Shown piece after piece: positions 4,462 through 28,038 of a stretch of DNA of 64,000 bases. Location: the IMG/VR virus record IMGVR_UViG_3300021957_000025, positions 1,156 through 65,155 of that record. One strand, written 5' to 3'. The notes below the pieces were generated by a model. The model was not told the origin of the DNA. It saw only the letters and a list, made by a program, of their open reading frames with translations, and did not search any database. The translations under genes were made by a program, and so were the position numbers. The stretch comes from a virus. Its lineage: Duplodnaviria; Caudoviricetes. Position 1 is the first letter of the stretch, and the number at the start of each line of letters is the position of its first letter.

Positions 4462-5464
4462 ACTTAAAATATTCCTGTGCTTTCTTCTCGAGCAGTTCCA
4501 TCACATCGGGTGTGAAGTACTTCTCGGGATTATTATTAATCGTCTTTCCGAAATCGGTTTTACCTGTAGGTAGTTTAACACGAGTTCCTTCTTTTGTAAA
4601 GACGCCAAATGCAAGTGCCATGTCTAATAGACCATAGTACCTATCTAATCCTTTTTCATAAGAAAGTCTAACATCCACTATTCTATTTTCTACAGTCAAT
4701 CTTGACTTTGCATTCTTACAGTGAATGATATTTCCGATTATCTCTGTCCCATCCTTCTCTTTCTTTTTAGATAGATAGATGATAGACGATGCAGCGTACT
4801 TGAGTCCACTACCACCACCCATTTCTTTCTGAGGGAACATAGAACCAATCACATCATATGTGTGGTTTGTGACAATCATAGGAACACCAACTCGACCAAG
4901 TTTCAAAGTTAGAACTCTAAATGCACCTTTTACAATTTGTGCTCGAGTCATATCCTTTGTCTCTTTACCTTCTGCAGTATCTTCGATTTCTTTGGTTGTT
5001 GATAACATACCAAGTGAATCTAAACACATCATCAAAGGTGGACGTTTGGATTTTGGGGTTTCAGCATACTTATCCAGTATACTAATCGATTGAGTTCTGA
5101 ATTCTTGTACAGTAACCACTGGGACAATAATCATCCTAGAGGAATCAATTCCCCTAGATTCAATCATATCCTTTGATATTGCTGACTCAGACTCAAAGTA
5201 TATAACTGCAGAATCGGGATTATCAGATAGGAATTGTTTTACTATGCCTAATGCAAAGTATGTTTTACCTGTTGCTGATTCTCCTGCGATTGCAGTAATT
5301 TTGTTGTCGGGAAGTCCACCGTATAGTGAACCACTTAATAGTGCATTGAAAATGTGACTACCTGTGTCTACAAAGGTATCAACATCTCCAGCTGCAACAC
5401 CGTCCGAAACAATATTTGCATATTCGTTTCCCGATGCTTTTACTAAATCTTTAATAAATGACAT
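4409..5464 (-). CDS. uvsX: RecA-like recombinase UvsX
   Basis: [15 protein letters not shown] and [12 protein letters not shown] motifs; adjacent to gp41. Confidence 0.95.
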
Positions 5465-5488
5465 AACACTTCTCCATAATGTATATCC

Positions 5489-5517
5489 ATTATAGACTAT
5501 GTTTGGGGTTTGTGCAA
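5489..5517 (-). promoter_or_regulatory. sigma70 promoter TTGCAC-N17-TATAAT for uvsX-gp41
   Basis: Read directly. Confidence 0.75.
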
Positions 5518-5524
5518 GGGGGTT

Positions 5525-5704
5525 TTAAAGTTTTTTTTCTATATTAGATAACTTTTTACCAACTTCAGACATTTTTTTGTCGAACCTAGTATGTTCCTTC
5601 ATCATAGCCTTTAACTCTGACATTCCTAATTCCAAGTGGATTATGAATCCGAATATTGCACATATCATTGCAATATAGAAACAATCCATTGGTGATATAG
5701 GCAC
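5525..5704 (-). CDS. small membrane-anchored coiled-coil protein (59 aa, GTG start)
   Basis: Hand-translated MPISPMDCFYIAMICAIFGFIIHLELG...; start overlaps the upstream stop; absent from the ORF track. Confidence 0.6.
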   Translation of the reverse strand: MPISPMDCFYIAMICAIFGFIIHLELGMSELKAMMKEHTRFDKKMSEVGKKLSNIEKKL

Positions 5705-6165
5705 TACAATACCTCGTCAATCTGTTCTTGAGTGACGACTCCTTTCTCCATTAGAAGCTTTCTATGCTCCATGTGACGTTCTGTTGTGGTGTCTTTATTC
5801 TCACCAGTATATTCCACTGCATGATGGTCAAGAATCATTTGTTTGTTGACATTGATGACTGATTCATCTTCGTTATGAACAAATAACTCTCCAAGTATGC
5901 GTCCGAATTTTCCTTTGTCGTGACTAACGAGGGTAATATTACCTTCTGATAGAAGATGTGTAAGATGTTTTTTAGATGCTTTACCAAACAATTTCTCCAC
6001 TAGGTCTCTTGTTCTTGATTCGGGTGTATCTATACCCATTAGACGCACTCTCTGTTTTTTTAGAACAGTAGAGAAGCCTAAGTCTATGTTGACATCAACT
6101 GTGTCGCCATCGACTATTTTAGTTATCGTAACGTGAAATTCACTTTGTTTAAAATATGTGGCCAT
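5704..6165 (-). CDS. thermonuclease (SNase-like)
   Basis: IVDGDTVD, RVRLMGIDTPE and KGKFGRILG motifs; start MATYF is 5 nt after TAAATA. Confidence 0.9.
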   Translation of the reverse strand: MATYFKQSEFHVTITKIVDGDTVDVNIDLGFSTVLKKQRVRLMGIDTPESRTRDLVEKLFGKASKKHLTHLLSEGNITLVSHDKGKFGRILGELFVHNEDESVINVNKQMILDHHAVEYTGENKDTTTERHMEHRKLLMEKGVVTQEQIDEVL

Positions 6166-10071: not shown

Positions 10072-10236
10072 TTATGCTGGGTCGGGTGGAGTATCAGTCT
10101 TCTCTACCCATGTGTAAGTTGAGTAGACTACTTTAAGTTCTTCAACAAGGCCTTCTTCACAGGAGAAAATATACATTTCCTGTCCTTCCTCTACCGTGTC
10201 GCTTGTTAATCTAAATTTATGATGTTCTAGTGCCAT
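10072..10236 (-). CDS. small acidic hypothetical protein (54 aa)
   Basis: Hand-translated MALEHHKFRLTSDTVEEGQEMY...; fills the gap between neighbours. Confidence 0.55.
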   Translation of the reverse strand: MALEHHKFRLTSDTVEEGQEMYIFSCEEGLVEELKVVYSTYTWVEKTDTPPDPA

Positions 10237-10534
10237 CTTCTTTCTCCCTCTTCATTTGTTCCTCGACAAGTTCCATTAATATGTCACCCATGAGGTCGTT
10301 TAATTCACTATTATTTAGGAGTTCCTCAAGTCCAATATCCGTCTTTTCCTGGCCATGTGGAAATCTTCTTATAGTTCTTGTGAAGTTAATATTTGGTTTA
10401 CCTTCTTCGAATTGTATCTTACCATATTGGTATACAAGTCCGTCCCATTCTCCACCTGTTAGTTCGATGGCTGCATCATCCTCATTGGGATTCTCTACGA
10501 CCATGTAGACTTTCTTATGAAATAATTCTGTCAT
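10217..10534 (-). CDS. conserved T4-like hypothetical protein
   Basis: AIELTGGEWDGLVYQYGKI...MGDILMEL pattern; probable start MTELF. Confidence 0.7.
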   Translation of the reverse strand: MTELFHKKVYMVVENPNEDDAAIELTGGEWDGLVYQYGKIQFEEGKPNINFTRTIRRFPHGQEKTDIGLEELLNNSELNDLMGDILMELVEEQMKREKEDGTRTS

Positions 10535-11051
10535 AAATCTCTTCCTCAATTTTCATAGATGATTCTATGCAATCGTTATCACGAATCTGCAATTGTCCTA
10601 GTAGATTCATGTTTGTTAATATGTTGTTTATCTGACTCCGTCTCCCCTTCAACCACACTTCGGACTGTGTGTCTCCACGTTCTGCGTGACGATTGTGCTC
10701 TTCCGATAACTCTACTGTTAGTACGTAAACGCGTGCTTCGTGATTGTCTATTAACCATTCTATATCCTTACCTCGAAAGTATCTATCACCTTCGATTAAT
10801 ACATGTTTATATGCAATGTTCATTGCTTCAATGAACTCTCTGAACTGTGGTATAGAACCGTGAGAGAGCTTATCAGTTCCACCGAATGTCTCTCCCTCGG
10901 GATATTGACCGACTACTAATATGTCACCATGTTCTTGGCACTTAAATAGTTTCATTGGTTCAACCAATTTAGGTTCGTCCAATCTAGATATAAGTCTTCT
11001 CATAAGAGTCGACTTTCCCGAACATGGAACTCCACCGACCATGAATATCAT
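10515..11051 (-). CDS. P-loop kinase of the type associated with DNA base modification
   Basis: GGVPCSGKST Walker A, VVGQY..GETFGGTDKLS and VLIEGDR; abuts the TET gene. Confidence 0.75.
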   Translation of the reverse strand: MIFMVGGVPCSGKSTLMRRLISRLDEPKLVEPMKLFKCQEHGDILVVGQYPEGETFGGTDKLSHGSIPQFREFIEAMNIAYKHVLIEGDRYFRGKDIEWLIDNHEARVYVLTVELSEEHNRHAERGDTQSEVWLKGRRSQINNILTNMNLLGQLQIRDNDCIESSMKIEEEIYDRIIS

Positions 11052-12053
11052 TTAAAAGAAACCGTCCAGTGAACCTTTCTCTTCATACTTTCCAGCATGA
11101 GGGCCAATAGGATTCTCTGATTTTCCAGCTCTCCCTTTAGTTGCAACATGTTCATCACAATATGCAACACATGATAATCTCACTCCTTCACCAGTGATAG
11201 GTGATACACCGTGCAATTCATTTGAATCTGCAATCAGTACGTCTCCATCATCTGCTTCAATAGCAATACCATATCTAGGGAAACATAAGTATGCACCCCC
11301 AAATTCTCCAATACGGAAGACACACATAGTTGTCATTCCGAACTCTAAATCTTTACCATCCAAATGTGCAGACATCTTTGCAGTCCCACCAGTTGAATAT
11401 TTGTTTGCAGATAACGCTGTCATAGGAGAACCACCAATGTGGTATTTCTCTTCTATACATTCATCTGCAAATGTTCTTTGCATATTCCATATCTCGGGAA
11501 CTGCAGTCTTTAGTGCTTGTTCATTGACGTTAGCAATCTGTGATAGGATTTCAAACTTTTCTTTGTTTGCTTTCTTGTCCATCCATCCACTGCCCTTAAT
11601 CATTCCTGTGAATCTGCCACGTTTATACCCGATTAGAACGGAATGAATCTCATTTGCTTCTGCAATACGATTGAACTCACCGTTCTTCTTAAGTGGATAA
11701 TAACTGTTTGGAGTTCTTAGGACATAGTCTTTACCTTCGATTAATCCTTTTGCTTTCATTTCTTCGTGGTTGATAGGCCCGGCTGCATTTGCTCTCATTG
11801 TAGATGTATCATCAATAGAAAACAATGTGTCTTTAATTAAATGATACTGGTCACCTTTGTATGCTCTCTTTACAATACATGCAAGTAGTGTTTCACCCAT
11901 GAGTGTACCATGAGGCTTATAAATTTTGATGATGTCGTCTTTAACATCTATAGATGATATAACAGTATCGTAAGAATCTTCATTGAGATACTTACCATTC
12001 CATTTGTCGAAGGTTTCTTTAAACCCTAAGTCTGTCTTTGCAGTAAATTCCAT
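11052..12053 (-). CDS. TET/JBP-family 5-methylpyrimidine dioxygenase
   Basis: AHLDGKD (HxD), GGAYLCFPRY, ELHGVSPI (distal His) and RLSCVAY (2OG-binding Arg); overlaps the MTase gene. Confidence 0.8.
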   Translation of the reverse strand: MEFTAKTDLGFKETFDKWNGKYLNEDSYDTVISSIDVKDDIIKIYKPHGTLMGETLLACIVKRAYKGDQYHLIKDTLFSIDDTSTMRANAAGPINHEEMKAKGLIEGKDYVLRTPNSYYPLKKNGEFNRIAEANEIHSVLIGYKRGRFTGMIKGSGWMDKKANKEKFEILSQIANVNEQALKTAVPEIWNMQRTFADECIEEKYHIGGSPMTALSANKYSTGGTAKMSAHLDGKDLEFGMTTMCVFRIGEFGGAYLCFPRYGIAIEADDGDVLIADSNELHGVSPITGEGVRLSCVAYCDEHVATKGRAGKSENPIGPHAGKYEEKGSLDGFF

Positions 12054-13303
12054 GGTTCTAATATTTGTCCTTTGATGTTTTCAACTAAGTAGTACATACA
12101 TAATGGTGCTACCATCAATCCAATTCTTGCACCCTTGTCGTTGTAATCACCAGTCATTTTATAATCATTTGGTAGAGTCATTAATCTCACCATTTCTTTT
12201 GGTGTGTAAATTCTTTTACCACTATGGTGGAAATGATTACCACCCATAAACTTTGGTTGACAACCCTGTTCAGTTAATGAATGAGCTGGTAGATGTTTAG
12301 GAACTATTCTTGACATGTAGTAAGAATGCTTTTCATCTTCGGGTTGTATGTGTCCGTTCTTAATCTGTTCTTGGAACCATGGTTTAACAATGTGGTCTCC
12401 AATAGATGTGTATGCTTGATTGTCTCTTTGTTTAAGAACTTCTGCAACTCCAGTACATGGGCCACAACCTTCAAACTTCTCATCGGGATGCACATCGAAT
12501 CCATTTACCCAGTGTCCTTTTGATGATTCATCCATTGCAGTTTCTAAATATTTTGCATCTGTAATATTTTCTTCATCAGTTTCTAAGTCTGAAATTGCAT
12601 CTTCAATAGATGCAAATTCTTTTACTGGGTCGGGGAAGACTGAAGACATACACATCCAAGGCATTCCAATACCTTCGAGTACATCATCACGTACACCAAC
12701 CATGAATACTCTTTCTCTCTTCTGAGGTACACCATGCTGATGACCCTTCATGATTTTCCAAGTCACTGAGTATCCTAGTGCTTCAAAATCGTTTACCATC
12801 TTGTTTAGATGGTCTCTTGCATAGTCCATTGAAAGACCTTTCACGTTCTCACATACTATAACTTTAGGCATTAACCCTTCGGCAATCCTAATCATTTCCC
12901 ATGTTAGGTCTTCAATGTTCTGTTGTTTCATACCATATGCCATCTTCTCTTGGTTCCATCCTTCTTTCTTGGAACCTGCCATAGAAAATGGTGGACAAGG
13001 TGGTGACCCATCCATGATATCTAATTCGTATTTCTTAAGTCCACTAAGCTCCATGATACCTTCTGCAGTGACTTCTTTGATGTCTCTACATTCGTGTACT
13101 GTGTTAGGGAAGTTTTCTAGGTAGGTGTCAACATGTAACTGTTGGAATTCGTTCATGTAACGAACGTCACCACCTGCTAGTTTGTAACCACATGAAGAAC
13201 CCCCACCGCCTGCAAAGAAAGTAATGTAATTAAACTGTTTACTTTCACTGTTACGGTGAAGGTCTTCTAGGTTGTATTGAAAATATTTATTATCACTCAT
13301 CAT
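12026..13303 (-). CDS. DNA cytosine-5 methyltransferase
   Basis: Motif I FAGGGG, motif IV GSPPC, motif VI ENV, motif VIII PQKRERV. Confidence 0.93.
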   Translation of the reverse strand: MMSDNKYFQYNLEDLHRNSESKQFNYITFFAGGGGSSCGYKLAGGDVRYMNEFQQLHVDTYLENFPNTVHECRDIKEVTAEGIMELSGLKKYELDIMDGSPPCPPFSMAGSKKEGWNQEKMAYGMKQQNIEDLTWEMIRIAEGLMPKVIVCENVKGLSMDYARDHLNKMVNDFEALGYSVTWKIMKGHQHGVPQKRERVFMVGVRDDVLEGIGMPWMCMSSVFPDPVKEFASIEDAISDLETDEENITDAKYLETAMDESSKGHWVNGFDVHPDEKFEGCGPCTGVAEVLKQRDNQAYTSIGDHIVKPWFQEQIKNGHIQPEDEKHSYYMSRIVPKHLPAHSLTEQGCQPKFMGGNHFHHSGKRIYTPKEMVRLMTLPNDYKMTGDYNDKGARIGLMVAPLCMYYLVENIKGQILEPWNLLQRQT

Positions 13304-13345: not shown

Positions 13346-13873
13346 TTAAAGATTTTCTAATAGATTTTCGGGTGTGGAAATCTCATAAGGGTCTGACTCT
13401 GCATTGTCTTGATAGCCATCTTCGATGAATGCTTTTTCAATTACACCATCATTAACAACTACTGCATATCTCCAAGACCTGTATCCAAAACCAAGATTTG
13501 ATTTAGAACATTCTGCACCAATCAAGTGAGTGAACTCACCGTTACCATCGGGAAGAGGGTAAACGTTTTTGATACCTAATGATTCGAACCATGAGTTCAT
13601 TACGAATGTATCATTAACTGATACACAGTAAATCTCATCAATACCTTTCTCTTGGAACTTCTCAAAGTTCTCATCGAAGCCAGGCAACTGTTGAGTTGAA
13701 CATGTTGGTGTAAATGCGCCAGGCAATCCAAATACAATTACTCTTTTACCAGCAAACTGTTCTACAGTGTCTAATGCTACAAATTCACCACCGACTCTCT
13801 GTGGTAGGATTACTTCGGGTACTCTAGTTTCCCCTTCAATAATTTCCAATCCCATTCTTCTTTCATCTGTCAT
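13346..13873 (-). CDS. peroxiredoxin (Prx5-like)
   Basis: LPGAFTPTCS, VSVNDTFVM and RSWRYA motifs. Confidence 0.93.
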   Translation of the reverse strand: MTDERRMGLEIIEGETRVPEVILPQRVGGEFVALDTVEQFAGKRVIVFGLPGAFTPTCSTQQLPGFDENFEKFQEKGIDEIYCVSVNDTFVMNSWFESLGIKNVYPLPDGNGEFTHLIGAECSKSNLGFGYRSWRYAVVVNDGVIEKAFIEDGYQDNAESDPYEISTPENLLENL

Positions 13874-13893: not shown

Positions 13894-13933
13894 AGATACA
13901 CCTATTATACAACATAACAGGTGTATCTGTAAG
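13894..13933 (-). promoter_or_regulatory. long hairpin after hsp20 (possible terminator) overlapping a CTTACA-N18-TATAAT promoter for the peroxiredoxin gene
   Basis: Perfect 10-bp inverted repeat AGATACACCT/AGGTGTATCT flanks the -10 box; extends by G-U pairs on the minus strand. Confidence 0.55.
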
Positions 13934-13941
13934 ATGGTTTT

Positions 13942-14370
13942 TTAAGAAATTTTGATTTCTTGAGGTTTGTCTTCTTCGGGTATTACTCTCTCAAGTGATA
14001 CGCTTAGAATACCATCCTTCATGTCTGCACCTTTAACGACAATATCGTCTGCTAGTGTAAACTTTCTAGTGAAATTTCTAGAAGAAAGTCCTTGATGGAC
14101 GAACTCCCTTGCATTTCCTTGGTCTTTCTGATTACCCATAACGATAAGAACTTCTTTCTCTTTTGAGATTGAAATTTCTTTCTTATTGAATCCAGCAACT
14201 GCAAGTTCAATTTGGAAGTTTTCCTCATCTACTTTTACAATATTGTAAGGTGGATAGTTAGAATTAGATTGTACATCTGCACGTTCTAATAGTTGAAGAG
14301 TTCTGTCGAACCCGATTGCGAATGGAAATTCTGTTGTGAATTTTCCGAAGACATCATTGAAATGTGTCAT
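13942..14370 (-). CDS. hsp20: small heat shock protein Hsp20 (IbpA-like)
   Basis: NYPPYNI, IELAVAGF and DGILSVSLER motifs. Confidence 0.95.
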   Translation of the reverse strand: MTHFNDVFGKFTTEFPFAIGFDRTLQLLERADVQSNSNYPPYNIVKVDEENFQIELAVAGFNKKEISISKEKEVLIVMGNQKDQGNAREFVHQGLSSRNFTRKFTLADDIVVKGADMKDGILSVSLERVIPEEDKPQEIKIS

Positions 14371-14486: not shown

Positions 14487-15080
14487 TTATCTTTTATTGC
14501 AATATTTTTTTGCATTACTTATTTGTTGAACATTATTTACAACCACTACAGACATAAGAATGTTCATCCAGTCGAATGTATCTGAAGTCAATCTGTCTTC
14601 TCTTCTATCTATTTCTATAGCAGGTAATAGAATTGCAGTCTTAACTGCGAACATTTTACCTACTGAAGGAGACTCTCCTACAAGTGGATTTAGTTCTTTC
14701 ACACAATCGTATTTAAGTCCACGATATGTTGTGTAGATATCTGCAAGTTGTAGGGTATAGAATAAAGTCCAATCAAACGTATTAGGTAATTCAGATGGTG
14801 TAAACTGTAACTGGTTCAGATTTTCCTTTGACTGTGATTCTATCAACTTCAGAGAATGCTCTAGATGGACACTGTCGATATGTTGCTTCGCCCAACAGCA
14901 CGTCCACCCCATCATAATTTCGTGTTTGTCCTTCGAGTCTAGCACCAAGGTTGACGGCATCTCCAATGACGGAATAGTCAAATCTAAGTTCTGACCCCAT
15001 GTTTCCAACGATGCACTCACCAGTGTTAATACCAATGCCAACATTGATAGGGGGAAGACCGAGTGGTTTGAGTTCTTCAT
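14487..15080 (-). CDS. DUF5658-like membrane or secreted protein overlapping the cyclase 3' end; start uncertain
   Basis: LQLADIYTTYRGL...ELNPL motif; no in-frame start between the cyclase stop and this motif. Confidence 0.6.
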   Translation of the reverse strand: MKNSNHSVFPLSMLALVLTLVSASLETWGQNLDLTIPSLEMPSTLVLDSKDKHEIMMGWTCCWAKQHIDSVHLEHSLKLIESQSKENLNQLQFTPSELPNTFDWTLFYTLQLADIYTTYRGLKYDCVKELNPLVGESPSVGKMFAVKTAILLPAIEIDRREDRLTSDTFDWMNILMSVVVVNNVQQISNAKKYCNKR

Positions 15081-16632
15081 TGAGTTCCTTGGTAGCAATT
15101 AGTATTTCTTCTGCAGACTTGACTGCCATCTCGGCATGGTTCGGACAGTCCATTGGAGCATTCCAAAAACTCATTATACAATCGCCCATGTATTTGTCTA
15201 TAGTTCCACCATTATTTAGAATTATCTTAGTCTGTAAGTCCAAGAATCTGTTAATCAATTCTACCAATCCTTCGGGGTCATCATTCTTCATGAACGCTTC
15301 ACTTATTGGGGTGAATCCACATATGTCCATAAACATGAAGGTAAGTTCCTTTCTATCTCCACCAAGTTTCAATTTTGATGGGTCTTTTTGGAGCTCTTCA
15401 ATCATGTCGGGGGATAAATACTTTTGGAACTGCTTCTTAATCTGTTGTTTTTCTTGATATGTAATGTAGTACTTGTTGAAAGAAGCATGTCCGAACACCA
15501 CCAAGGAGGCAATCGATGAGAAGAAGGTATCGAAAAGAACGAGCTCTGAAGTCCAAATATAATAACTCCCGCCAATCTGGCATCCTACAAGCAATAGACT
15601 CCCTACCCCCGAAAGAAGTGTGGGAGCTTTGTAGACCAAACCCAATATCGTTATTAGGACTAACAGAAGAAGAACGGATTCTAAGGATTCAAGATAGTAG
15701 GATTGTTGTATTTGAACTCCTGTCAAAACGGTTTGGAGCAGGTTTGCTTGCACTTCGTGGGGATACATTACTCCCCTTGGGGTTGAAACTGGATTATTCA
15801 AACCCTCAGCTGTCAGACCCCATACAAGAATCTTATTCTCAAAATTAGATTCGGGTAGGTCAACTGCAGATATTCTATGGAATTTATTCCAATAGGAAAC
15901 CATTACGTCTGAAGTTGGAGTTGTTGTAATAGGTTTGTCTCTCCCCATTCTAACCCATTCAACTCCAGCTTCGGGTGTAATCTTAGTTTGATAAGACGGC
16001 TGGTCACGTAAGGCACGTAATGTCTCTAAAACTAGAGATGGATATACCTGTCCGTTTGCAGTAACCATAAGGGGTACAGACCGCGTAGTCCCATCAAAAT
16101 TAGGTGTCCCAGTGACAGCTGGAGTAGCCGTTACAACTCCTATACCGTAAGTGTTTTTAGCAAGTATTGGAATGGGTTGGACTATCCCAGTGAAATTCCA
16201 CAACCAATTCTTTGCATCTCCACCACCAAAAGTAGAGTTACCTACGAATGGTAATGCACCTGTATCTTTTTGAATTGTTGGAGCAGCTCCGAGGATTGTA
16301 AGTCTATTGACTAACCCCTCAGCAAATAGATTGTCTTGTGAAGGGTCTCTATCACTTTCCGAAAAAAGAGTAGAGAACAAATGAGTGTTAGAGTAATGAG
16401 TGTTAAGAAGAATGTCACGGTAAATACCACGGCGAATAGGATACTGTCCAAAAGTCTCAAGACTCTTCTCATCAATATCAACAAGTACGATGTCATCGAC
16501 ATAGAATTCACCCTGTTGTTGGTGAAGGTAATCAAACCACGACCATGAGATGTTTTCAACAAAATAAGGATTCCATATCTTTAGAGCAAAGATTGCTACG
16601 ATTGTTATTAATACTGATTTCCACGAAAACAT
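14791..16632 (-). CDS. CHASE2-domain class III adenylate cyclase
   Basis: N-terminal TM helix; CHASE2 (IVLVDIDEKSL...TPRGVMYPHEVQAN); TM helices; cyclase motifs FMDICGFT, DKYMGDCIM and FDYSVIGDAVNLGARLE. Confidence 0.93.
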   Translation of the reverse strand: MFSWKSVLITIVAIFALKIWNPYFVENISWSWFDYLHQQQGEFYVDDIVLVDIDEKSLETFGQYPIRRGIYRDILLNTHYSNTHLFSTLFSESDRDPSQDNLFAEGLVNRLTILGAAPTIQKDTGALPFVGNSTFGGGDAKNWLWNFTGIVQPIPILAKNTYGIGVVTATPAVTGTPNFDGTTRSVPLMVTANGQVYPSLVLETLRALRDQPSYQTKITPEAGVEWVRMGRDKPITTTPTSDVMVSYWNKFHRISAVDLPESNFENKILVWGLTAEGLNNPVSTPRGVMYPHEVQANLLQTVLTGVQIQQSYYLESLESVLLLLVLITILGLVYKAPTLLSGVGSLLLVGCQIGGSYYIWTSELVLFDTFFSSIASLVVFGHASFNKYYITYQEKQQIKKQFQKYLSPDMIEELQKDPSKLKLGGDRKELTFMFMDICGFTPISEAFMKNDDPEGLVELINRFLDLQTKIILNNGGTIDKYMGDCIMSFWNAPMDCPNHAEMAVKSAEEILIATKELNEELKPLGLPPINVGIGINTGECIVGNMGSELRFDYSVIGDAVNLGARLEGQTRNYDGVDVLLGEATYRQCPSRAFSEVDRITVKGKSEPVTVYTI

Positions 16633-16633
16633 T

Positions 16634-16903
16634 TTATGAGAATTTCTTCTGTACCCATTTAAAGACTGTATAAATGGATAGACCATAGAATGCAAGTACA
16701 GACATGGGCAATGCTATGTACGCAAGTTCCCATGGTGATAAAAACAGAACTTCCCAACCAAAATTTATAGCTGCCTCAACGTCACCCAAAGGTTCAAGTG
16801 TTGCTGGCAATGCAATTTCATTCTCTTCAAAGAGGTCTAGTATCTCATTAAACTGTTCTTCAGTATAACACTCGTAAAACTCGGGTGGGCATTCTGCGTT
16901 CAT
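16634..16903 (-). CDS. small membrane protein
   Basis: Start MNAEC overlaps the curlin stop; C-terminal hydrophobic helix. Confidence 0.65.
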   Translation of the reverse strand: MNAECPPEFYECYTEEQFNEILDLFEENEIALPATLEPLGDVEAAINFGWEVLFLSPWELAYIALPMSVLAFYGLSIYTVFKWVQKKFS

Positions 16904-17705: not shown

Positions 17706-18833
17706 CTAGTTTGTTTGTGTGATAGTAATATTTATAGACGAACCATCACCCACTTGTATTAGTGACTCCTTTTCGTCTGTTATGGTTCTAATGGATGCTT
17801 GTGCAAACATTGGTAATCTAATGGAAATAACTCCATTAACTTCCCTGTAGAACCATATCTGGCCCAGACCCTTGTCTACAATTGTATTGTATTGAGTGTC
17901 TTTGTCAAACCCCGAACCTGTTCCTTGAATACGAACACTTCCGAATGCTTGTCGTTCTCTATCGATACCAACCTTACGGTCAATCTCTAAGACAACGTCC
18001 AGTAAATCTTGTAAGAAATCGACATCTAATAAATCTCTATCGAGTTCTGTATATTCTAATTCATCATCTTCGAAATAGTCTTCTTCTAAATCATTGAACT
18101 CTAGGAAGTCTACGTCTAGAATATTACTACTATCATTCTCTGAACCACTTTCTTCTGATATCTGTTCTGTCACCTCTTCGGGTGGAGATACAATGAAGTA
18201 GTTATCAATTAGATTGGGTGTAATCCCATTCACTACAACTGGTTTTGTAGGTGAATCATCATAAGTTGAAACCATTGTTGTCTGATATGCTTCATTCATG
18301 GTCACCGAACCACCAGCATTACTTACTACAATTTCTCCCGAGGGAGCACCCCATTTATCGGGGAGCAGAATTATCAATGACCTTCCGATTTCATCAATAC
18401 TAGTTGTGAAATCTGTGCCTCTGACTGTTATCTGTGCAGTAGGTGTAGTTATATTTATGTTCGCTTTGTTTATTTTACCACCAAAACCCGAAGCAAATCG
18501 AGCGGTGCCTTGTGCCATTCTTATGGCCATCTTTGACTTGGATGGGTCGGGGTCATAGTAAACCTCGTCTATCCAAACTTTGGAGTGTTCTGTTAAGTCT
18601 AGTTCCTCGTCTCCTTGGAACTGAATTTTCATTCTTCCATTCTGAGTTTGTGCTGTATCATACATTAGCACTTCAGGCATCTCAGATGCTGAGATGACGG
18701 TAGTCTCACCGTCTCTCTGCAACCCAGCGTATCCTGTTTGTTCTGTAATCTCACCTATTGGTTCACCATGAAGTGAACCAATAAGTAAAAGATTAATCGT
18801 TATCGTCTTTTTGAACGATGTCAATATTTGCAT
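17706..18833 (-). CDS. FecR-domain exported protein
   Basis: DTAQTQNGRMKIQF...LTEHSKVWIDE, QGTARFASG and TPTAQITVRGTDF motifs; acidic linker. Confidence 0.85.
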   Translation of the reverse strand: MQILTSFKKTITINLLLIGSLHGEPIGEITEQTGYAGLQRDGETTVISASEMPEVLMYDTAQTQNGRMKIQFQGDEELDLTEHSKVWIDEVYYDPDPSKSKMAIRMAQGTARFASGFGGKINKANINITTPTAQITVRGTDFTTSIDEIGRSLIILLPDKWGAPSGEIVVSNAGGSVTMNEAYQTTMVSTYDDSPTKPVVVNGITPNLIDNYFIVSPPEEVTEQISEESGSENDSSNILDVDFLEFNDLEEDYFEDDELEYTELDRDLLDVDFLQDLLDVVLEIDRKVGIDRERQAFGSVRIQGTGSGFDKDTQYNTIVDKGLGQIWFYREVNGVISIRLPMFAQASIRTITDEKESLIQVGDGSSINITITQTN

Positions 18834-19521
18834 TAGAAGTCACGAAAGTCACATCGATAATACCACTACAAGATTGTCCAGTTGGGCATCCTGTATCTGA
18901 ACCACTCTTCTGAATGATGTCGATATCATTACTTGAACCAGTTAAGATTGCAGTAATGCTGTTATCAGTTGCATCTGATTGATTAGTGTTAATGTCATTA
19001 GATGAACCTGTAACAGTCCAGTTCCAAACAGCATTGTCACTATCTATCTTAGTAGTGAATATGTTTGATGAACCAGCAACTACTAAATCCCAGTTAAGGT
19101 ATTCAGCACTAGCATCTGCACCAATATCAATATCAAATGTATTAGACGAACCTGTAACAGTACCTAACATATTTAACTCGTCAGCACTATTTTGACCAAT
19201 GTTCCAGTCCATAACATTTGAATCACCAGTGAAGGTGAGGTTTATAGTTGCTGAGTCAGCAATCATAGGCCCGAATAGTTTGTTACTGTCTCCAAATTGG
19301 ACAAGTGTAAACGTATTAGATGCACCAGTTAAAACCATATCAGCAGATGTTCCCGAGAAATCATCTAGACCAACTTTGTTTCCATATCCTTTCTGTGTAA
19401 AATCTAGTACTAAACCAGTACCACTTTGATTCAACCATATTTCATTGTCGTCTGCTCCAGCAAATGCTGTAGTAGAAAACCCTAATGTTAAACATAATGT
19501 AATGAATAATTTATTCTTCAT
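18793..19521 (-). CDS. curlin-like beta-solenoid secreted protein (CsgA/B-like)
   Basis: Signal peptide ending AFA; repeated QxGxxN and (T/A)GSSN units; C-terminal CPTGQSC. Confidence 0.7.
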   Translation of the reverse strand: MKNKLFITLCLTLGFSTTAFAGADDNEIWLNQSGTGLVLDFTQKGYGNKVGLDDFSGTSADMVLTGASNTFTLVQFGDSNKLFGPMIADSATINLTFTGDSNVMDWNIGQNSADELNMLGTVTGSSNTFDIDIGADASAEYLNWDLVVAGSSNIFTTKIDSDNAVWNWTVTGSSNDINTNQSDATDNSITAILTGSSNDIDIIQKSGSDTGCPTGQSCSGIIDVTFVTSNANIDIVQKDDND

Positions 19522-20419
19522 TTTGTTTATCCTCTATTTGATGTCCCTCGTTTCTTCCATGAGTTCCGTGTGGATGTCGATGACCATCTTTAATTACCCA
19601 AAAACTTCTATCGTGTCCTTGGTATATTAGTTCTAAGACAGCTAGTTCAATTGCAGAACGAGTTGCTTTCGTAACTCCTTCATTCGCTGCTATACCGTCT
19701 TCCATTTCCACCAACTTCGTATCCATATCCACGAAGCGGAATACATCATAACCACCGCCTGTACTTAAAATCGTCTTTGTAGTCTGTACATTTAGTAAAA
19801 TTTCACCAGTTAAAGTTGATATTCCTCTCAACGATACCGTGACAACATCTCTACGATAGGAAACACTTGAACCAATACCTAAGTATCTTGCGCCTCGCCC
19901 ACCACTTTCAATGTTTGTATCATAACCAATTATCCCACCGTCAAGTAGGATACCAGCAAACAAGAGAGGTTGAATGCCCGTTGGAGCATCCTCATTACCT
20001 TCCTGTCTTGCAAAGTCTTCTCTAGTAGAACGAATGATTTGTCTCTCTCTTACAAGTGCGTCTAAACTTGTACGTTCTACTACTCTAAACCATTTACCTT
20101 TTCCAGCAGTCTTAAGTGCATCAATTAAAAATGATTCTGCACCTTGTGTGACTGCAGTAGAGAATGATGCAATGTTATCCATTCTCTTCCTTTGTCCTGT
20201 CTTATCTAAGAACCCATACACTGCAACTACTGGCATATTGTCAGCAGGTGGTAAGTCTGCAAGTTCTTGGTACGTAGGTATATTTACTACTTCTGCCTGT
20301 TCGACACATTCACCTACTCGTTCCATAACCAATGATGTACAGGAATCCGTCATGCTTGGTATGGCAGCACACCCGCTGATGAGCAAGACTAACAGTCCTA
20401 CTATTCCTAAGTTTTTCAT
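19511..20419 (-). CDS. csgG: curli secretion channel lipoprotein CsgG
   Basis: LISGC lipobox, VAVYGFLDKTGQ, FSTAVTQGA, WFRVVER and GGIIGYDTN motifs. Confidence 0.93.
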   Translation of the reverse strand: MKNLGIVGLLVLLISGCAAIPSMTDSCTSLVMERVGECVEQAEVVNIPTYQELADLPPADNMPVVAVYGFLDKTGQRKRMDNIASFSTAVTQGAESFLIDALKTAGKGKWFRVVERTSLDALVRERQIIRSTREDFARQEGNEDAPTGIQPLLFAGILLDGGIIGYDTNIESGGRGARYLGIGSSVSYRRDVVTVSLRGISTLTGEILLNVQTTKTILSTGGGYDVFRFVDMDTKLVEMEDGIAANEGVTKATRSAIELAVLELIYQGHDRSFWVIKDGHRHPHGTHGRNEGHQIEDKQNEE

Positions 20420-20878
20420 TTAAAAACTACCAGTACCGATTGGTATATCTAAAGTTGTAGTTGTTCCATCACTTGCTACAATGGTTAGACGAATGAATTC
20501 CACACCGTCTTCTCCAACCATCTGTTCGTATGTAACTGTATTACCTTCTATAGTGAAGACACCGTATGTTACAGCTTCACCGTTAGAGAACATATTCTCT
20601 ACTAATTGTTTTGCAAGTTGAGCATAGATTCTGCTCTCTACGTTCCTTAAAAATTTGGCAAGTGTCGTGTTATTTGCTTCTCTATCTGCCTTTGCAATTG
20701 CATCTTCAACGTCTTGTGCTATCTTATCACGTCTTGATTTCTCTTGGTTCTCAATGGTAAGATAATGTGCTGATTGACCTACCCCATTAAAACTAGGACT
20801 CTTAAATCCAAATACAATTTCATCTGCATTTACAGACATACACATCATCATTAAAATTATACTACTTACTATTCTCAT
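20420..20878 (-). CDS. csgF: curli assembly protein CsgF
   Basis: Signal peptide then EIVFGFKSPSFNG; immediately upstream of csgG. Confidence 0.85.
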   Translation of the reverse strand: MRIVSSIILMMMCMSVNADEIVFGFKSPSFNGVGQSAHYLTIENQEKSRRDKIAQDVEDAIAKADREANNTTLAKFLRNVESRIYAQLAKQLVENMFSNGEAVTYGVFTIEGNTVTYEQMVGEDGVEFIRLTIVASDGTTTTLDIPIGTGSF

Positions 20879-25178: not shown

Positions 25179-25207
25179 ATTATACTACCCTTGTTCTGAT
25201 TGTGCAA
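25179..25207 (-). promoter_or_regulatory. sigma70 promoter TTGCAC-N17-TATAAT, 6 nt before the ATG
   Basis: Read directly; embedded in the upstream gene's 3' end. Confidence 0.7.
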
Positions 25208-26477
25208 TAGTGTTTTCTAACAAAGTTTTCTTTTGTATAGGGTTTATTTCTCTATACATTATATTGTATCCACTTCCACCTTGAGCTTGTATAAGCAAAT
25301 TCATATTATCTAATTTTTTCTCAAACTCAATTTTATTTTTTGCAAAATTGTTCCAGTATTCGATTCCAGTGTGATAATATAATACCACTAAATCTTTCTT
25401 AGACCTTACGGCTTTAGAAGATAAGGACTTAGACCATTCATTAAAGAATCCTCTTAACATTCCACTAGAAGTTATAATGCAATGTGTAGTTTTGTCCTTG
25501 TATTCATTGTTTGCTTCTTCTTGAGCAGCTGCTTTTGTGGTTTTAACAAATTTCTCATTTGGTGCAAGGCCACTTGGTTTTAAAAGCTGTTTCTTTATTT
25601 TAGCCTTCAATGATTTTAAGTCGTTAGAAGAAAAACCATGTCTTTTTAATTTGACAGTCACAACTGGGTCGTCATGCTTCTTATTATTATCTTTACAATA
25701 TTGAACGATAGTGTTGACGATAGTTGTAGTGTCTTGAGCTTTAGGTTTAAAGTCATGTTCTGCATTATCTAACTGACCAATCTCTTGGAGTTCAGTCTCA
25801 ATAAGTTTTGACCACATTGATTCGGGTATAAAAATAACTGGTAAAGTTATATCAGAGTCTTCACCAAAATATTTCTTACCAGCTGCACATGTATGGTTTT
25901 TACTAAGTCTTGTGTGTTTACCCTTTCCTTTAAAGTTCTCTAGAACAATCAAGTGTTTCTCAGATAGTTCTCCAGTCCAAAAGGAAGGGTCGTCCATTAA
26001 TTTGTCATATATTTTTTTGACATGTGAAGGGTCAACTCCATCTTCTTCTCTAACTTGATATGTATCCCACCCAAGTATTTCTTTTAAAGCGTAATCACCA
26101 GTTTCATAAAATTTACTTTCAAGTGCTTCTAGACATTGAATAAAGAATTTTGATTCTGCTTTGAATGCACCCGAGTTAGATTCATTGTAGTATTCTTTAC
26201 TTAGTTTTGCATCGTTATCATGTAGATAATCTTGTTCAAACTTCCTACACTCTGCTTCAGTTCCAGTAAATAAAACTTGATACTCTGAATCATATGTAGC
26301 CAAATCTTTCTTATAAGCTGAACTGTGAGTCACCACCGTTCCTTGATAAGTTCCATCGGGGTAACCAATTTTACTTCCCATGTATTTGTTCCTACCCCTC
26401 TTCTGAACTACTACAAGATAGCAGTGATAGAGGCAATCTGCCTCTAACACACTATTACATTTCCAATTAATCATCAT
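25185..26477 (-). CDS. hypothetical protein with an N-terminal GIY-YIG/Seg-like domain
   Basis: CYLV...KYMGSKIG...TYQGT...FEQDYL...YYNESN pattern; start uncertain. Confidence 0.55.
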   Translation of the reverse strand: MMINWKCNSVLEADCLYHCYLVVVQKRGRNKYMGSKIGYPDGTYQGTVVTHSSAYKKDLATYDSEYQVLFTGTEAECRKFEQDYLHDNDAKLSKEYYNESNSGAFKAESKFFIQCLEALESKFYETGDYALKEILGWDTYQVREEDGVDPSHVKKIYDKLMDDPSFWTGELSEKHLIVLENFKGKGKHTRLSKNHTCAAGKKYFGEDSDITLPVIFIPESMWSKLIETELQEIGQLDNAEHDFKPKAQDTTTIVNTIVQYCKDNNKKHDDPVVTVKLKRHGFSSNDLKSLKAKIKKQLLKPSGLAPNEKFVKTTKAAAQEEANNEYKDKTTHCIITSSGMLRGFFNEWSKSLSSKAVRSKKDLVVLYYHTGIEYWNNFAKNKIEFEKKLDNMNLLIQAQGGSGYNIMYREINPIQKKTLLENTIAQSEQG

Positions 26478-27726
26478 TGCTGTCACCTTCTGTAGTTTCC
26501 TCAGCATTCAAGTCTACCCCAGCATCAATCTTGGAGTAGAGGTCGAGGATACTATTTCTAGTTTCTTCATCGAACCTTGAGATACACATTGTGATTGACT
26601 TCAACTTGTCATTGAACATTCTGAATGCATTGACAATGTGAACCAACCTTCTAGTCGTGACAACATCATCGATACCACCTTCGTAGTATGTCTTTCTGAT
26701 TATGTCAGCCCAGTCGACAAGCTTCTCAACGAAGTCTTCATCAACGGCACCAGTCAATTCCATTTCTTTTGCAAGGATTGACTTCTCAGTTTTCACTGGT
26801 GGATATTCTTGTTGCATCGTGATTGCAAATCTTTCCAACATTGCTTCATTCATGATTTGAGTCCCGATGAATTTACCATCGTCTGACCCTTGACCTTTCG
26901 TGTTTGCAGTTGCAAGGATTGTGAAACCTTCTTTAGGTGAAACCCACTCACCAGTTTTCTTGATTAGGTATCCTTTACCTTCAAGAACTGATTGTAGACA
27001 CATCAACTTGTTTGAACCCAAGTCAACTTCGTCAAGAAGTAACACGGCACCTTTTCTCATTGCTTTGATAACTGGGCCTTCTCTGAAGACAACGTTACCA
27101 TTAACAAGAGTGTGACCACCCATCAAATCATCTTCATCGGTTTCGATGGTGATGTTGACTCTGTAAAGTTCTCTCTTCAATTGAGCACAAGTTTGTTCAA
27201 TCATAAGAGTTTTACCATTACCACTCAGACCAGTAACGAATACTGGAAAGAAGATTTTGGATTTAATAATATTTTTGACATCTTTGAAATGTCCAAAAGG
27301 AACATAGTTAGACATCTTCTCGGGAATGATTTTAATTCCATCATCGAGTAGATTAACTGACTCTGTTTGTGCAGCCACTGGCATATTACTTGGGGAAGCA
27401 ATTGACACCACTGGTGCTGGAGCAACAACACTAGTTGCACTCTCTGAATATCCACCGTTGTAACCACCGATTACAGCTTGAAGATTGTACAACAAAGGCC
27501 CAGTCTCTTGAGCTTCTTTGAAGTTATACTTCGAGGATTTTATCCATGAAGGGAAATATCCATCAAAGGCATCTTTGATTTCTTTCCTTCCAAAGGATTC
27601 TTGGTTAGGGAATTTGTTGACCAGTTCTCCCAAGAACTCCACCCTATCGGGTGTGTAAGAAAATTTCTTACCGTTTACGTCAATTGAATTTATCATAGTC
27701 TCTCCGTTTTTCAATTCTTTTCTCAT
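26467..27726 (-). CDS. MoxR-type AAA+ ATPase (phage 'CobS')
   Basis: TGLSGNGKT, LLLDEVDL, ATANTKGQG and NEAMLERF motifs; the start may be MINSI. Confidence 0.92.
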   Translation of the reverse strand: MRKELKNGETMINSIDVNGKKFSYTPDRVEFLGELVNKFPNQESFGRKEIKDAFDGYFPSWIKSSKYNFKEAQETGPLLYNLQAVIGGYNGGYSESATSVVAPAPVVSIASPSNMPVAAQTESVNLLDDGIKIIPEKMSNYVPFGHFKDVKNIIKSKIFFPVFVTGLSGNGKTLMIEQTCAQLKRELYRVNITIETDEDDLMGGHTLVNGNVVFREGPVIKAMRKGAVLLLDEVDLGSNKLMCLQSVLEGKGYLIKKTGEWVSPKEGFTILATANTKGQGSDDGKFIGTQIMNEAMLERFAITMQQEYPPVKTEKSILAKEMELTGAVDEDFVEKLVDWADIIRKTYYEGGIDDVVTTRRLVHIVNAFRMFNDKLKSITMCISRFDEETRNSILDLYSKIDAGVDLNAEETTEGDSNDD

Positions 27727-27733
27727 CTTTTAT

Positions 27734-27766
27734 AGTATATCAAAAAGCCGATGGCACTGTCAAGGC
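27734..27766 (-). promoter_or_regulatory. early promoter copy 1: GCCTTGACAGTGCC...TGATATACT
   Basis: One of three near-identical promoters. Confidence 0.8.
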
Positions 27767-28038
27767 TATTTCAGCGACTCGAATCTAGTTCCCATCTTCT
27801 CCACACATTTAATAATACCCTTCTTATTCTTCTCAGTAAGATACTTCTCACCTTTATTGACCCAAATTCTGAATGCAAAACACTCCTTCTCTTCAGTCTT
27901 GCACTCATTAATCTTTGGACACTCATGGAAGGTGCATGGGGCAGGCCCAACATCCATCACTGCATCAGCAAACTTTGAATAGTCTGTATTGTGATTAATG
28001 TAATATGCATCGTCTACTCTAAGTGGTTCTCTATTCAT
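27766..28038 (-). CDS. Cys-rich hypothetical protein
   Basis: PCTFHECPKINEC...CFAFRIWV; coupled to the upstream gene. Confidence 0.7.
   Translation of the reverse strand: MNREPLRVDDAYYINHNTDYSKFADAVMDVGPAPCTFHECPKINECKTEEKECFAFRIWVNKGEKYLTEKNKKGIIKCVEKMGTRFESLK

Follow-up and report, generated by a model that had tools for sequence, protein, structure and literature searches.

The DNA analysed here, referred to as the window, is a stretch of 64,000 nucleotides from the virus record IMGVR_UViG_3300021957_000025 and covers 64 kb of this 65-kb IMG/VR viral contig, for which CheckV gives a completeness of 36%. It carries replication genes of the T4 type (family B polymerase, sliding clamp and clamp loader), and its source is a marine T4-like myophage. 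An earlier note, made from the letters alone, had singled out three adjacent genes as a candidate pathway in which cytosine is methylated, hydroxymethylated and finally phosphorylated. The products of these genes, all of which exceed the curated Pfam cut-offs, are as follows:

12026..13303, minus strand: DNA cytosine-C5 methyltransferase (methylase) of the clade I type, 425 amino acids (aa); PF00145, E = 9e-49, 167 bits; phrog_116, E = 5.8e-65
11052..12053, minus strand: TET/JBP-family Fe(II)/2-oxoglutarate 5-methylpyrimidine dioxygenase (TET), 333 aa, predicted to convert 5-methylcytosine (5mC) to 5-hydroxymethylcytosine (5hmC); PF12851, E = 1.6e-12
10515..11051, minus strand: P-loop kinase of a DNA-base kinase family, 178 aa, predicted 5hmC DNA kinase; PF18751, E = 1.2e-7; phrog_800, E = 1.3e-12

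The limits that the earlier note gave for the trio are exactly those in the list of open reading frames (ORFs), and the genes are packed as it had described. The methylase gene runs 28 nucleotides (nt) into the TET gene, the TET and kinase genes abut with a gap of 0 nt, and the kinase ORF shares 35 nt with the next ORF (10549..10217). With its neighbors the order is Hsp20, peroxiredoxin, methylase, TET and kinase, then two small ORFs, lysozyme and polymerase. The suggestion that the trio lies behind one promoter region was not borne out: only 42 nt separate the peroxiredoxin gene from the methylase gene, the nearest sigma-70-like matches precede peroxiredoxin (13933-13904, overlapping a 16-bp hairpin) and Hsp20 (14479-14452), and promoter-like matches in the region were no more frequent than in shuffled sequence (20 versus 20.1).

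The catalytic motifs of the methylase are intact; PPC (with C103), ENV, QxRxR and the motifs of the C-terminus show no variation in the alignment. The atypical CGPC stretch that had been noticed in its variable region belongs to an insert of 22 residues by which the target-recognition region differs from that of the methylases of the type found in Melnitz, a phage of Methylophilales (OM43) and the closest cultured relative. The insert is present in the window and in the related locus L031 and absent from Melnitz and from L047, and it lies where Burke et al. 2021 (PNAS 118:e2026742118; PMC8256090) place the additional target-recognition-region insert that distinguishes clade I methylases from those of clade II. 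The TET protein scores 47.4 bits against PF12851 (cut-off 34.9), and its iron ligands (H230-x-D232 and H281) and 2-oxoglutarate-binding R292 are invariant in five sequences; a PDB search with the TET profile gave no match. In the kinase, G7, G12, K13 and T15 of the Walker A motif, together with G48, G53, G58, D60, E87, G88 and R121, are invariant in six sequences, among them gp54 of phage M6, a verified 5-hydroxymethyluracil (5hmU) DNA kinase. The G.Y...GG.D motif attributed to this protein is present as G48..G53..G58-x-D60, with a longer spacer than had been written.

A profile search of the kinase against base-modification kinase families, one of the checks that the earlier note had proposed, matched PF18751 (Ploopntkinase3) at 31.9 bits, over the cut-off of 27, and phrog_800 at the E-value listed above (2.8e-11 for the Melnitz kinase). 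The same PHROG family is matched by M6 gp54 (E = 2e-39), by Gordonia phage Wooper gp4, which is annotated as a 5-hmU DNA kinase (1.9e-28), and by a homologue in Caulobacter phage Cr30 (4.7e-24). The window kinase is only a distant relative of the verified 5-hmU DNA kinases. Iyer et al. 2013 are said to have made the original prediction of these kinase families. Searching PDB with the kinase sequence alone returned nothing useful, and the kinase-family profile gave mainly P-loop-only matches. Existing labels for the family are misleading: phrog_800 is mislabelled "terminase small subunit", as is M6 gp54 in RefSeq (L044:11686-12249), and among the 410 phage records that match the family, 376 of them Mycobacterium phages, most listed homologues are labelled "adenylate kinase" or "terminase small subunit".

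A wider kinase search yielded 29 further loci. Five are of the methylase-linked type (methylase and TET wholly or partly visible in four, the fifth cut by a contig end). More distant homologues occur in two other kinds of cluster. One consists of ParB, TET, glutamine amidotransferase, an acetyltransferase-like protein (a weak GNAT match, under the Pfam cut-off), amino-acid:DNA transferase and kinase; the other, in actinophages, consists of ParB, TET, amino-acid:DNA transferase and a kinase annotated "5-hmU DNA kinase". We also found a natural fusion of TET and kinase, a 723-aa ORF (L065:5402-7573, plus strand) with TET at residues 95-370 and the kinase domain at residues 535-675; no methylase was seen in this locus. 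Longer, fused kinase forms were absent from the protein collection, a weak negative since this IMG/VR locus has one.

A maximum-likelihood tree with 44 kinases placed all 18 of the methylase-linked ones in one monophyletic group (support 100/100) on a stem of length 1.61. This clade nests (94/94) with marine ParB-TET loci and Cr30, while M6 gp54 lies far off on a long branch, where its placement is unreliable. The long stem would fit a change of substrate. Thirteen positions, for example C10, C38, Q39, W99 and E118, are fixed in the methylase-linked kinases and rare elsewhere, and these are candidate specificity determinants. Four loci (L104, L105, L107 and L108) have two tandem paralogous kinases after TET, at 5335-5871 and 5868-6401 in L104. 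The second copy is strongly diverged (branch length 1.54); phage ViI similarly has two paralogous 5-hmU DNA kinases.

The kinase-anchored search returned 33 IMG/VR loci with 69-100% identity. TET lies upstream of the kinase in 28 of them, the other five ending less than 1.3 kb upstream of the kinase, and the methylase was seen in 25, the remaining eight being cut by contig ends. In the TET-anchored search we took the best 80 of 109 confirmed IMG/VR loci (52-100% identity), and the methylase was directly upstream of TET in 77 of these 80; several of the loci share contigs with the kinase-anchored set and the lineages are not independent. Sixty-five TET loci were evaluable, having at least 2.5 kb of downstream sequence or a kinase, and 52 of them keep the kinase, either directly after TET (15 loci, the window included) or after an intervening gene (37 loci). 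Melnitz has the series polymerase, methylase, TET, a 427-aa protein (gp7) and kinase, with 53% identity to the window in TET (gp6) and 56% in the kinase. The three genes are conserved together, a point on which the earlier note had staked its proposal, and the arrangement of methylase, TET and kinase is far beyond chance.

The sister loci L080-L083, whose TET is 85% identical, have the same backbone of Hsp20, peroxiredoxin, methylase and TET. At the site of the kinase, they carry an NAD-dependent epimerase (PF01370), a TET-associated glycosyltransferase (PF20691) and a spermidine-synthase-like/aminopropyltransferase-like protein (PF01564), and this module is followed by the same small gene and lysozyme as in the window. 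The swap indicates that the kinase occupies the slot of a 5hmC-decorating enzyme, and it demonstrates at one site and in one backbone what had earlier been proposed, namely a kinase in place of the usual glycosyltransferase.

Two further loci with methylase, TET and ParB-like genes have a 336-aa protein (L140:8261-9271, and in L143) instead of the P-loop kinase, followed by 147- and 426-aa proteins. It matches PF02958 (ecdysteroid/aminoglycoside kinase-like) weakly and under the cut-off (E = 0.019), and may be another kind of kinase in the same slot.

Partner enzymes were sought in four records: the window's contig, G001 (146 kb, 80% complete), G002 (97 kb, 54% complete) and the complete Melnitz genome. 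None of the four gave a match at E<=1 to PF18724 (aGPT-Pplase), the amino-acid:DNA transferase family, and a marine amino-acid:DNA transferase used as protein query found nothing either; the profiles used could miss divergent families, and the three metagenomic contigs do not cover whole genomes. A search of this kind had been called for in the earlier note. The TET-associated glycosyltransferase family was likewise absent from the four records, as was the ThyA-family hydroxymethylase PF00303, so that a pre-replicative route is not visible. For the ThyA family, the earlier observation that the window has no deoxynucleoside monophosphate hydroxymethylase extends to the whole 65-kb contig.

Burke et al. 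screened IMG/VR and GOV 2.0 for contigs with methylase and TET and described clade I/A members with a heat-shock protein, a redoxin, and a P-loop kinase or glycosyltransferase (PMC8256090). In their report, every clade I or II methylase that was co-expressed with its cognate clade A or B TET methylated Escherichia coli DNA, and 5hmC was formed in most pairs; the characterised TETs act at GpC, and TET88, which comes from a kinase contig, is active at GC sites. The same authors already proposed phosphorylation of TET-made 5hmC by the kinase for contigs 49, 76 and 88.

We read the trio as a module with which a marine T4-like myophage modifies cytosine after replication, leading from cytosine to 5mC, 5hmC and phospho-5hmC, and put the probability of this reading at roughly 0.6. 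The methylase would methylate cytosine in the phage DNA at C5, probably at GpC sites, as strongly supported by the published assays of the same cluster type, and the TET-family dioxygenase would oxidise 5mC to 5hmC, as supported by the same assays. That 5hmC is formed after replication, as the earlier note had held, is well supported by these assays together with the intact motifs. The kinase would then move the gamma-phosphate of adenosine triphosphate to the hydroxymethyl group, giving 5-phosphomethylcytosine in DNA. We infer this third step from the family membership of the kinase, its repeated occurrence with TET (once as a fusion), the swap for a glycosyltransferase module and the separate methylase-linked clade. 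The likely role of the modification would be to shield the phage DNA from host nucleases. The earlier interpretation is partly supported; it is the best available, and it repeats a published proposal.

Several points weigh against this reading. The kinase exceeds its Pfam cut-off by just 4.9 bits, and in a pairwise BLAST with M6 gp54 it aligns over the P-loop only (E = 0.065, non-significant). Thirteen of the 65 evaluable relatives have no kinase, and the closest kinases outside the methylase-linked clade belong to methylase-less (thymine-type) clusters with an amino-acid:DNA transferase. The match of the window to clade I/A, and of Melnitz to clade II/B, was made by architecture. According to the published accounts, the phosphorylated base is an intermediate and never the final product in every characterised system (PMC8989533), and the one 5-hmU DNA kinase preparation that was tested labels 5hmU but not 5hmC in DNA (PMC6457204). 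As for novelty, the gene set and the kinase hypothesis have been in print since 2021, and the window adds a member to a published cluster type.

Since neither the module nor related genomes have a recognisable transferase, the phosphate ester would either remain as the final base or be displaced by an enzyme whose family was not recognised, and we weight these two outcomes about equally. The kinase-only module and the absent transferase favor a final product, while the characterised precedents favor an intermediate. In its strongest form, the proposal would make the methylase-linked kinases the first DNA-base kinases specific for 5hmC; at the sites chosen by the methylase, 5-phosphomethylcytosine would be the final base of the virion DNA in a widespread set of marine myophages including Melnitz. 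This would fit the kinase-only module, the exchange with glycosyltransferase genes at the same site and the lack of a recognisable transferase in a complete related genome, and we hold it only tentatively. If, on the other hand, the phosphate is merely a leaving group, a phage or host enzyme of an unrecognised family would add an amine, an amino acid or another group to give a hypermodified cytosine, a possible but rather doubtful outcome that refines the third step and does not contradict the main explanation. All characterised pathways consume 5-phosphomethyl-deoxyuridine through amino-acid:DNA transferases (PMC8989533), and the nearest non-methylase relatives of the kinase (L050 and L052) have such a transferase directly upstream. 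Burke et al. foresaw further modification by downstream hypothetical proteins (PMC8256090), 62% of the ORFs of Melnitz are hypothetical according to the paper on that phage, and the tandem kinase paralogues hint at more elaborate chemistry. Set against this are the failure of both the PF18724 profile and the protein query to find a transferase in the four records, and the 15 loci in which the kinase directly follows TET, where only backbone genes come next; these also follow the glycosyltransferase module, so that no kinase-specific partner gene is visible.

Two other explanations take the kinase out of cytosine chemistry altogether. The dioxygenase could act also or mainly on thymine, producing 5hmU for an ordinary 5-hmU DNA kinase, with the methylase an independent anti-restriction gene. 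Most phage TET-family enzymes are in fact predicted to be thymine dioxygenases, with a C5-methyltransferase in just 6% of such pathways (PMC13229309), TET89 is reported to oxidise T and 5mC alike (PMC8256090), all verified kinases of the family act on 5hmU as far as the published accounts go, and most relatives have a ParB-like gene beside TET, as ParB-dependent thymine dioxygenases do. However, the methylase adjoins TET in 77 of 80 loci and overlaps it by 28 nt here, a coupling that thymine oxidation would not need, clade A and B TETs of this architecture made 5hmC from the product of their cognate methylase (PMC8256090), and the methylase-linked kinases branch together, apart from the rest, on a long stem. 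Neither source of 5hmU that was looked for, a deoxyuridine monophosphate (dUMP) hydroxymethylase or a thymine dioxygenase without methylase, was found: PF00303 had no match in any of the four records, and TET is coupled to the methylase in the proportion just given. We consider this explanation improbable. Even less probable is that the protein is a nucleotide or polynucleotide kinase, serving nucleotide supply or end repair, that stands beside the methylase and TET by chance. Its homologues are widely labelled "adenylate kinase", "nucleotide kinase" or "thymidylate kinase", and the family profile weakly matches polynucleotide kinases in PDB (4gp7, E = 1.4e-4; T4 polynucleotide kinase, E = 0.008) besides generic P-loop proteins. 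But no nucleotide-kinase Pfam family scored over its cut-off, and M6 gp54, whose action on DNA bases is verified, falls under the "adenylate kinase" and "terminase small subunit" labels too. Linkage to TET recurs in three unrelated cluster types and one gene fusion, and in the sister loci a glycosyltransferase module stands exactly where the kinase gene would be. Phosphorylation of 5hmC made by the methylase and TET remains our preferred explanation.

The genes that separate TET from the kinase in 37 relatives vary, and the window has none. They are distributed as follows:

ParB-like family, 330-424 aa: 21 loci
Pair of 319-aa and 184-aa proteins: 5 loci
HNH-containing protein: 4 loci
Protein of ~460 aa with an N-terminal DGGHR motif (DUF262/GmrSD-like by motif only) and a weak, sub-threshold C-terminal HNH match: 3 loci
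440-aa gene (g440): 2 loci
Unassigned: 2 loci

This slot is hypervariable, with at least six unrelated gene types (L005, L025, L031, L033, L047, L048, L122, L129 and others), and several of its genes have ParB/DUF262-like motifs and some have HNH domains. It could be a hot spot of the homing-endonuclease kind, a place for alternative TET helpers, or both. Pfam matches among the slot genes were weak (ParB_N in 2/28, with E>=0.028; HNH in 2/28; GIY-YIG in 1/28), and PADLOC gave nothing useful on the genes between TET and kinase. The ParB-like call comes from motifs and from profile-profile comparison: hhalign matched the slot family to the TET-associated ParB proteins with a probability of 91% (E = 1e-6), and the latter match solved ParB and Noc structures at about 5e-13. 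O'Toole et al. 2026 (PNAS) report that some phage thymine dioxygenases depend on a ParB partner when the DNA is double-stranded. By analogy, the ParB-like gene of the relatives is better read as a helper of TET than as the missing transferase. No ParB homologue lies between or beside the genes of the window trio; the probable ParB-like g440 is 14 kb away.

The product of g440 is 73% identical (74% at the DNA level) to Melnitz gp7, which sits between TET and kinase. Further phmmer matches lie between TET and kinase in L101 and L127, the L101 copy being only 18% identical in the alignment, and the family comprises 132 representative clusters. Its N-terminus resembles a GIY-YIG nuclease by motif only and is followed by a probable ParB-like domain. 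A 60-sequence profile of the family matched the TET-associated ParB proteins with an hhalign probability of 70% (E = 4e-5), direct comparison with the ParB-like slot family was non-significant (probability 1.7%), and a PDB search with the g440 family gave no match. In the window, g440 sits as a cleanly inserted 1.28-kb segment, with the sliding-clamp region on one side and a CbbQ/MoxR-like ATPase gene on the other; the site is empty in G001 and G002. We considered g440 as a substitute for the in-cluster ParB-like gene, since the two were mutually exclusive in four records, and downgraded this idea in view of the clean mobile insertion at an unrelated site. We read it as a mobile, putatively nuclease-like gene that is often inserted between TET and kinase, and it may still have a part in the pathway.

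The remaining features of the window discussed here are listed below:

13346..13873, minus strand: peroxiredoxin, 175 aa, a backbone neighbor typical of clade I/A clusters; PF08534 (Redoxin), E = 6.3e-27; phrog_2281, E = 7.8e-65
13942..14370, minus strand: Hsp20/alpha-crystallin small heat-shock protein, 142 aa, backbone; tblastn identity of 46-48% to genes annotated Hsp20/alpha-crystallin, including that of Melnitz
10217..10549, minus strand: small acidic protein, 110 aa, overlapping the 3' end of the kinase gene; phrog_3998, E = 1.3e-6
25185..26507, minus strand: mobile 440-aa gene g440, similar to Melnitz gp7
13904..13933, minus strand: nearest sigma-70-like promoter match upstream of the run from peroxiredoxin to kinase; consensus match only, 10/12 hexamer positions

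The 110-aa gene was tried as a partner of the kinase module and dropped: it comes after the kinase in relatives as well, and it also follows the glycosyltransferase module of the kinase-less loci L080-L083. It belongs to the backbone and is not a kinase partner. Beside Hsp20, a 634-aa ORF (14791-16695, minus strand) resembles a membrane-anchored class III nucleotide cyclase, as judged by reading the sequence. Farther upstream (17706-20878, minus strand) are a FecR-domain protein and homologues of CsgG and CsgF, components of the curli secretion pore; phage-encoded curli pore genes have been described from Melnitz and pelagimyophages (PMC9004378). At 26467-30413 (minus strand), an AAA ATPase of the CbbQ/NorQ/MoxR type (PF07728, PF08406; PHROG label "porphyrin biosynthesis") adjoins a 791-aa phrog_459 protein ("peptidase"). 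This may be the CobS/CobT-like pair of marine T4-like phages.

What is new here are the conservation counts, the module swap, the clade of methylase-linked kinases, the TET-kinase fusion, the lack of a transferase in a complete relative, the variable ParB-like gene that most relatives have between TET and kinase and the window lacks, and the identification of a cultured carrier phage. If correct, a kinase acting on 5hmC would extend the phosphorylation of DNA bases from thymine-derived to cytosine-derived bases and would complete a fully post-replicative route from cytosine through 5mC and 5hmC to phospho-5hmC in abundant ocean phages. Were the ester also the final base, it would be the first nucleobase phosphate ester kept as a finished DNA modification and not as a leaving group. 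In the literature library that we searched, neither a tested 5hmC DNA kinase nor a phosphomethyl-cytosine base was reported. Nanopore DNA runs containing the locus, in which modified sites might show as systematic miscalls, were sought as well, and none were listed. Such an enzyme would be a useful reagent for labelling 5hmC, which the 5-hmU DNA kinase preparation mentioned above cannot do (PMC6457204). Cultured Melnitz, whose host is OM43 strain H5P1 (Methylophilales), carries methylase, TET and kinase with one extra gene between TET and kinase, and makes the chemistry directly checkable; the passages searched of the paper on this phage mention the methylase (gene 5) and hold no description of the TET or kinase genes.

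Among known systems, contigs 49, 76 and 88 of clade I/A in Burke et al. share with the window a heat-shock protein, a redoxin, an insert-bearing methylase, TET and kinase, with lysozyme near, and the source collections overlap (IMG/VR, marine viromes). Unlike in those contigs, the window kinase comes directly after TET, with no ParB-like gene between them and no candidate transferase downstream. The methylase/TET/glycosyltransferase contigs 43, 14 and 69 of the same study (PF20691, TET-associated glycosyltransferase) have the same backbone and the same first two enzymes, but where these clusters have an epimerase, the glycosyltransferase and an aminopropyltransferase-like gene, the window has a single kinase.

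The 5-hmU DNA kinases, namely M6 gp54, PaMx11 gp49, ViI gp67/gp243, SP10 gp186 and PhiW-14 gp37 (Lee et al. 2018, 2021), resemble the window protein as P-loop kinases of ~180 aa in phrog_800 with common Walker A, G..G..G.D, EG and R motifs, and the verified ones are reported to put a single phosphate on 5hmU in polymeric DNA (PMC8989533). In those systems, 5hmU is made before replication by a ThyA-like dUMP hydroxymethylase, and the kinase is always paired with an amino-acid:DNA transferase. The window has neither partner family; methylase and TET would supply the hydroxymethyl group, and the kinase would act on 5hmC. The ParB-dependent thymine-dioxygenase clusters, such as gp1-gp4 of Wooper, likewise combine TET with a PF18751 kinase (198 bits in Wooper), and most relatives of the window resemble them in having a ParB-like gene by TET, which the window trio lacks. 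These clusters have no C5-methyltransferase and do have an amino-acid:DNA transferase; the window is the reverse on both counts.

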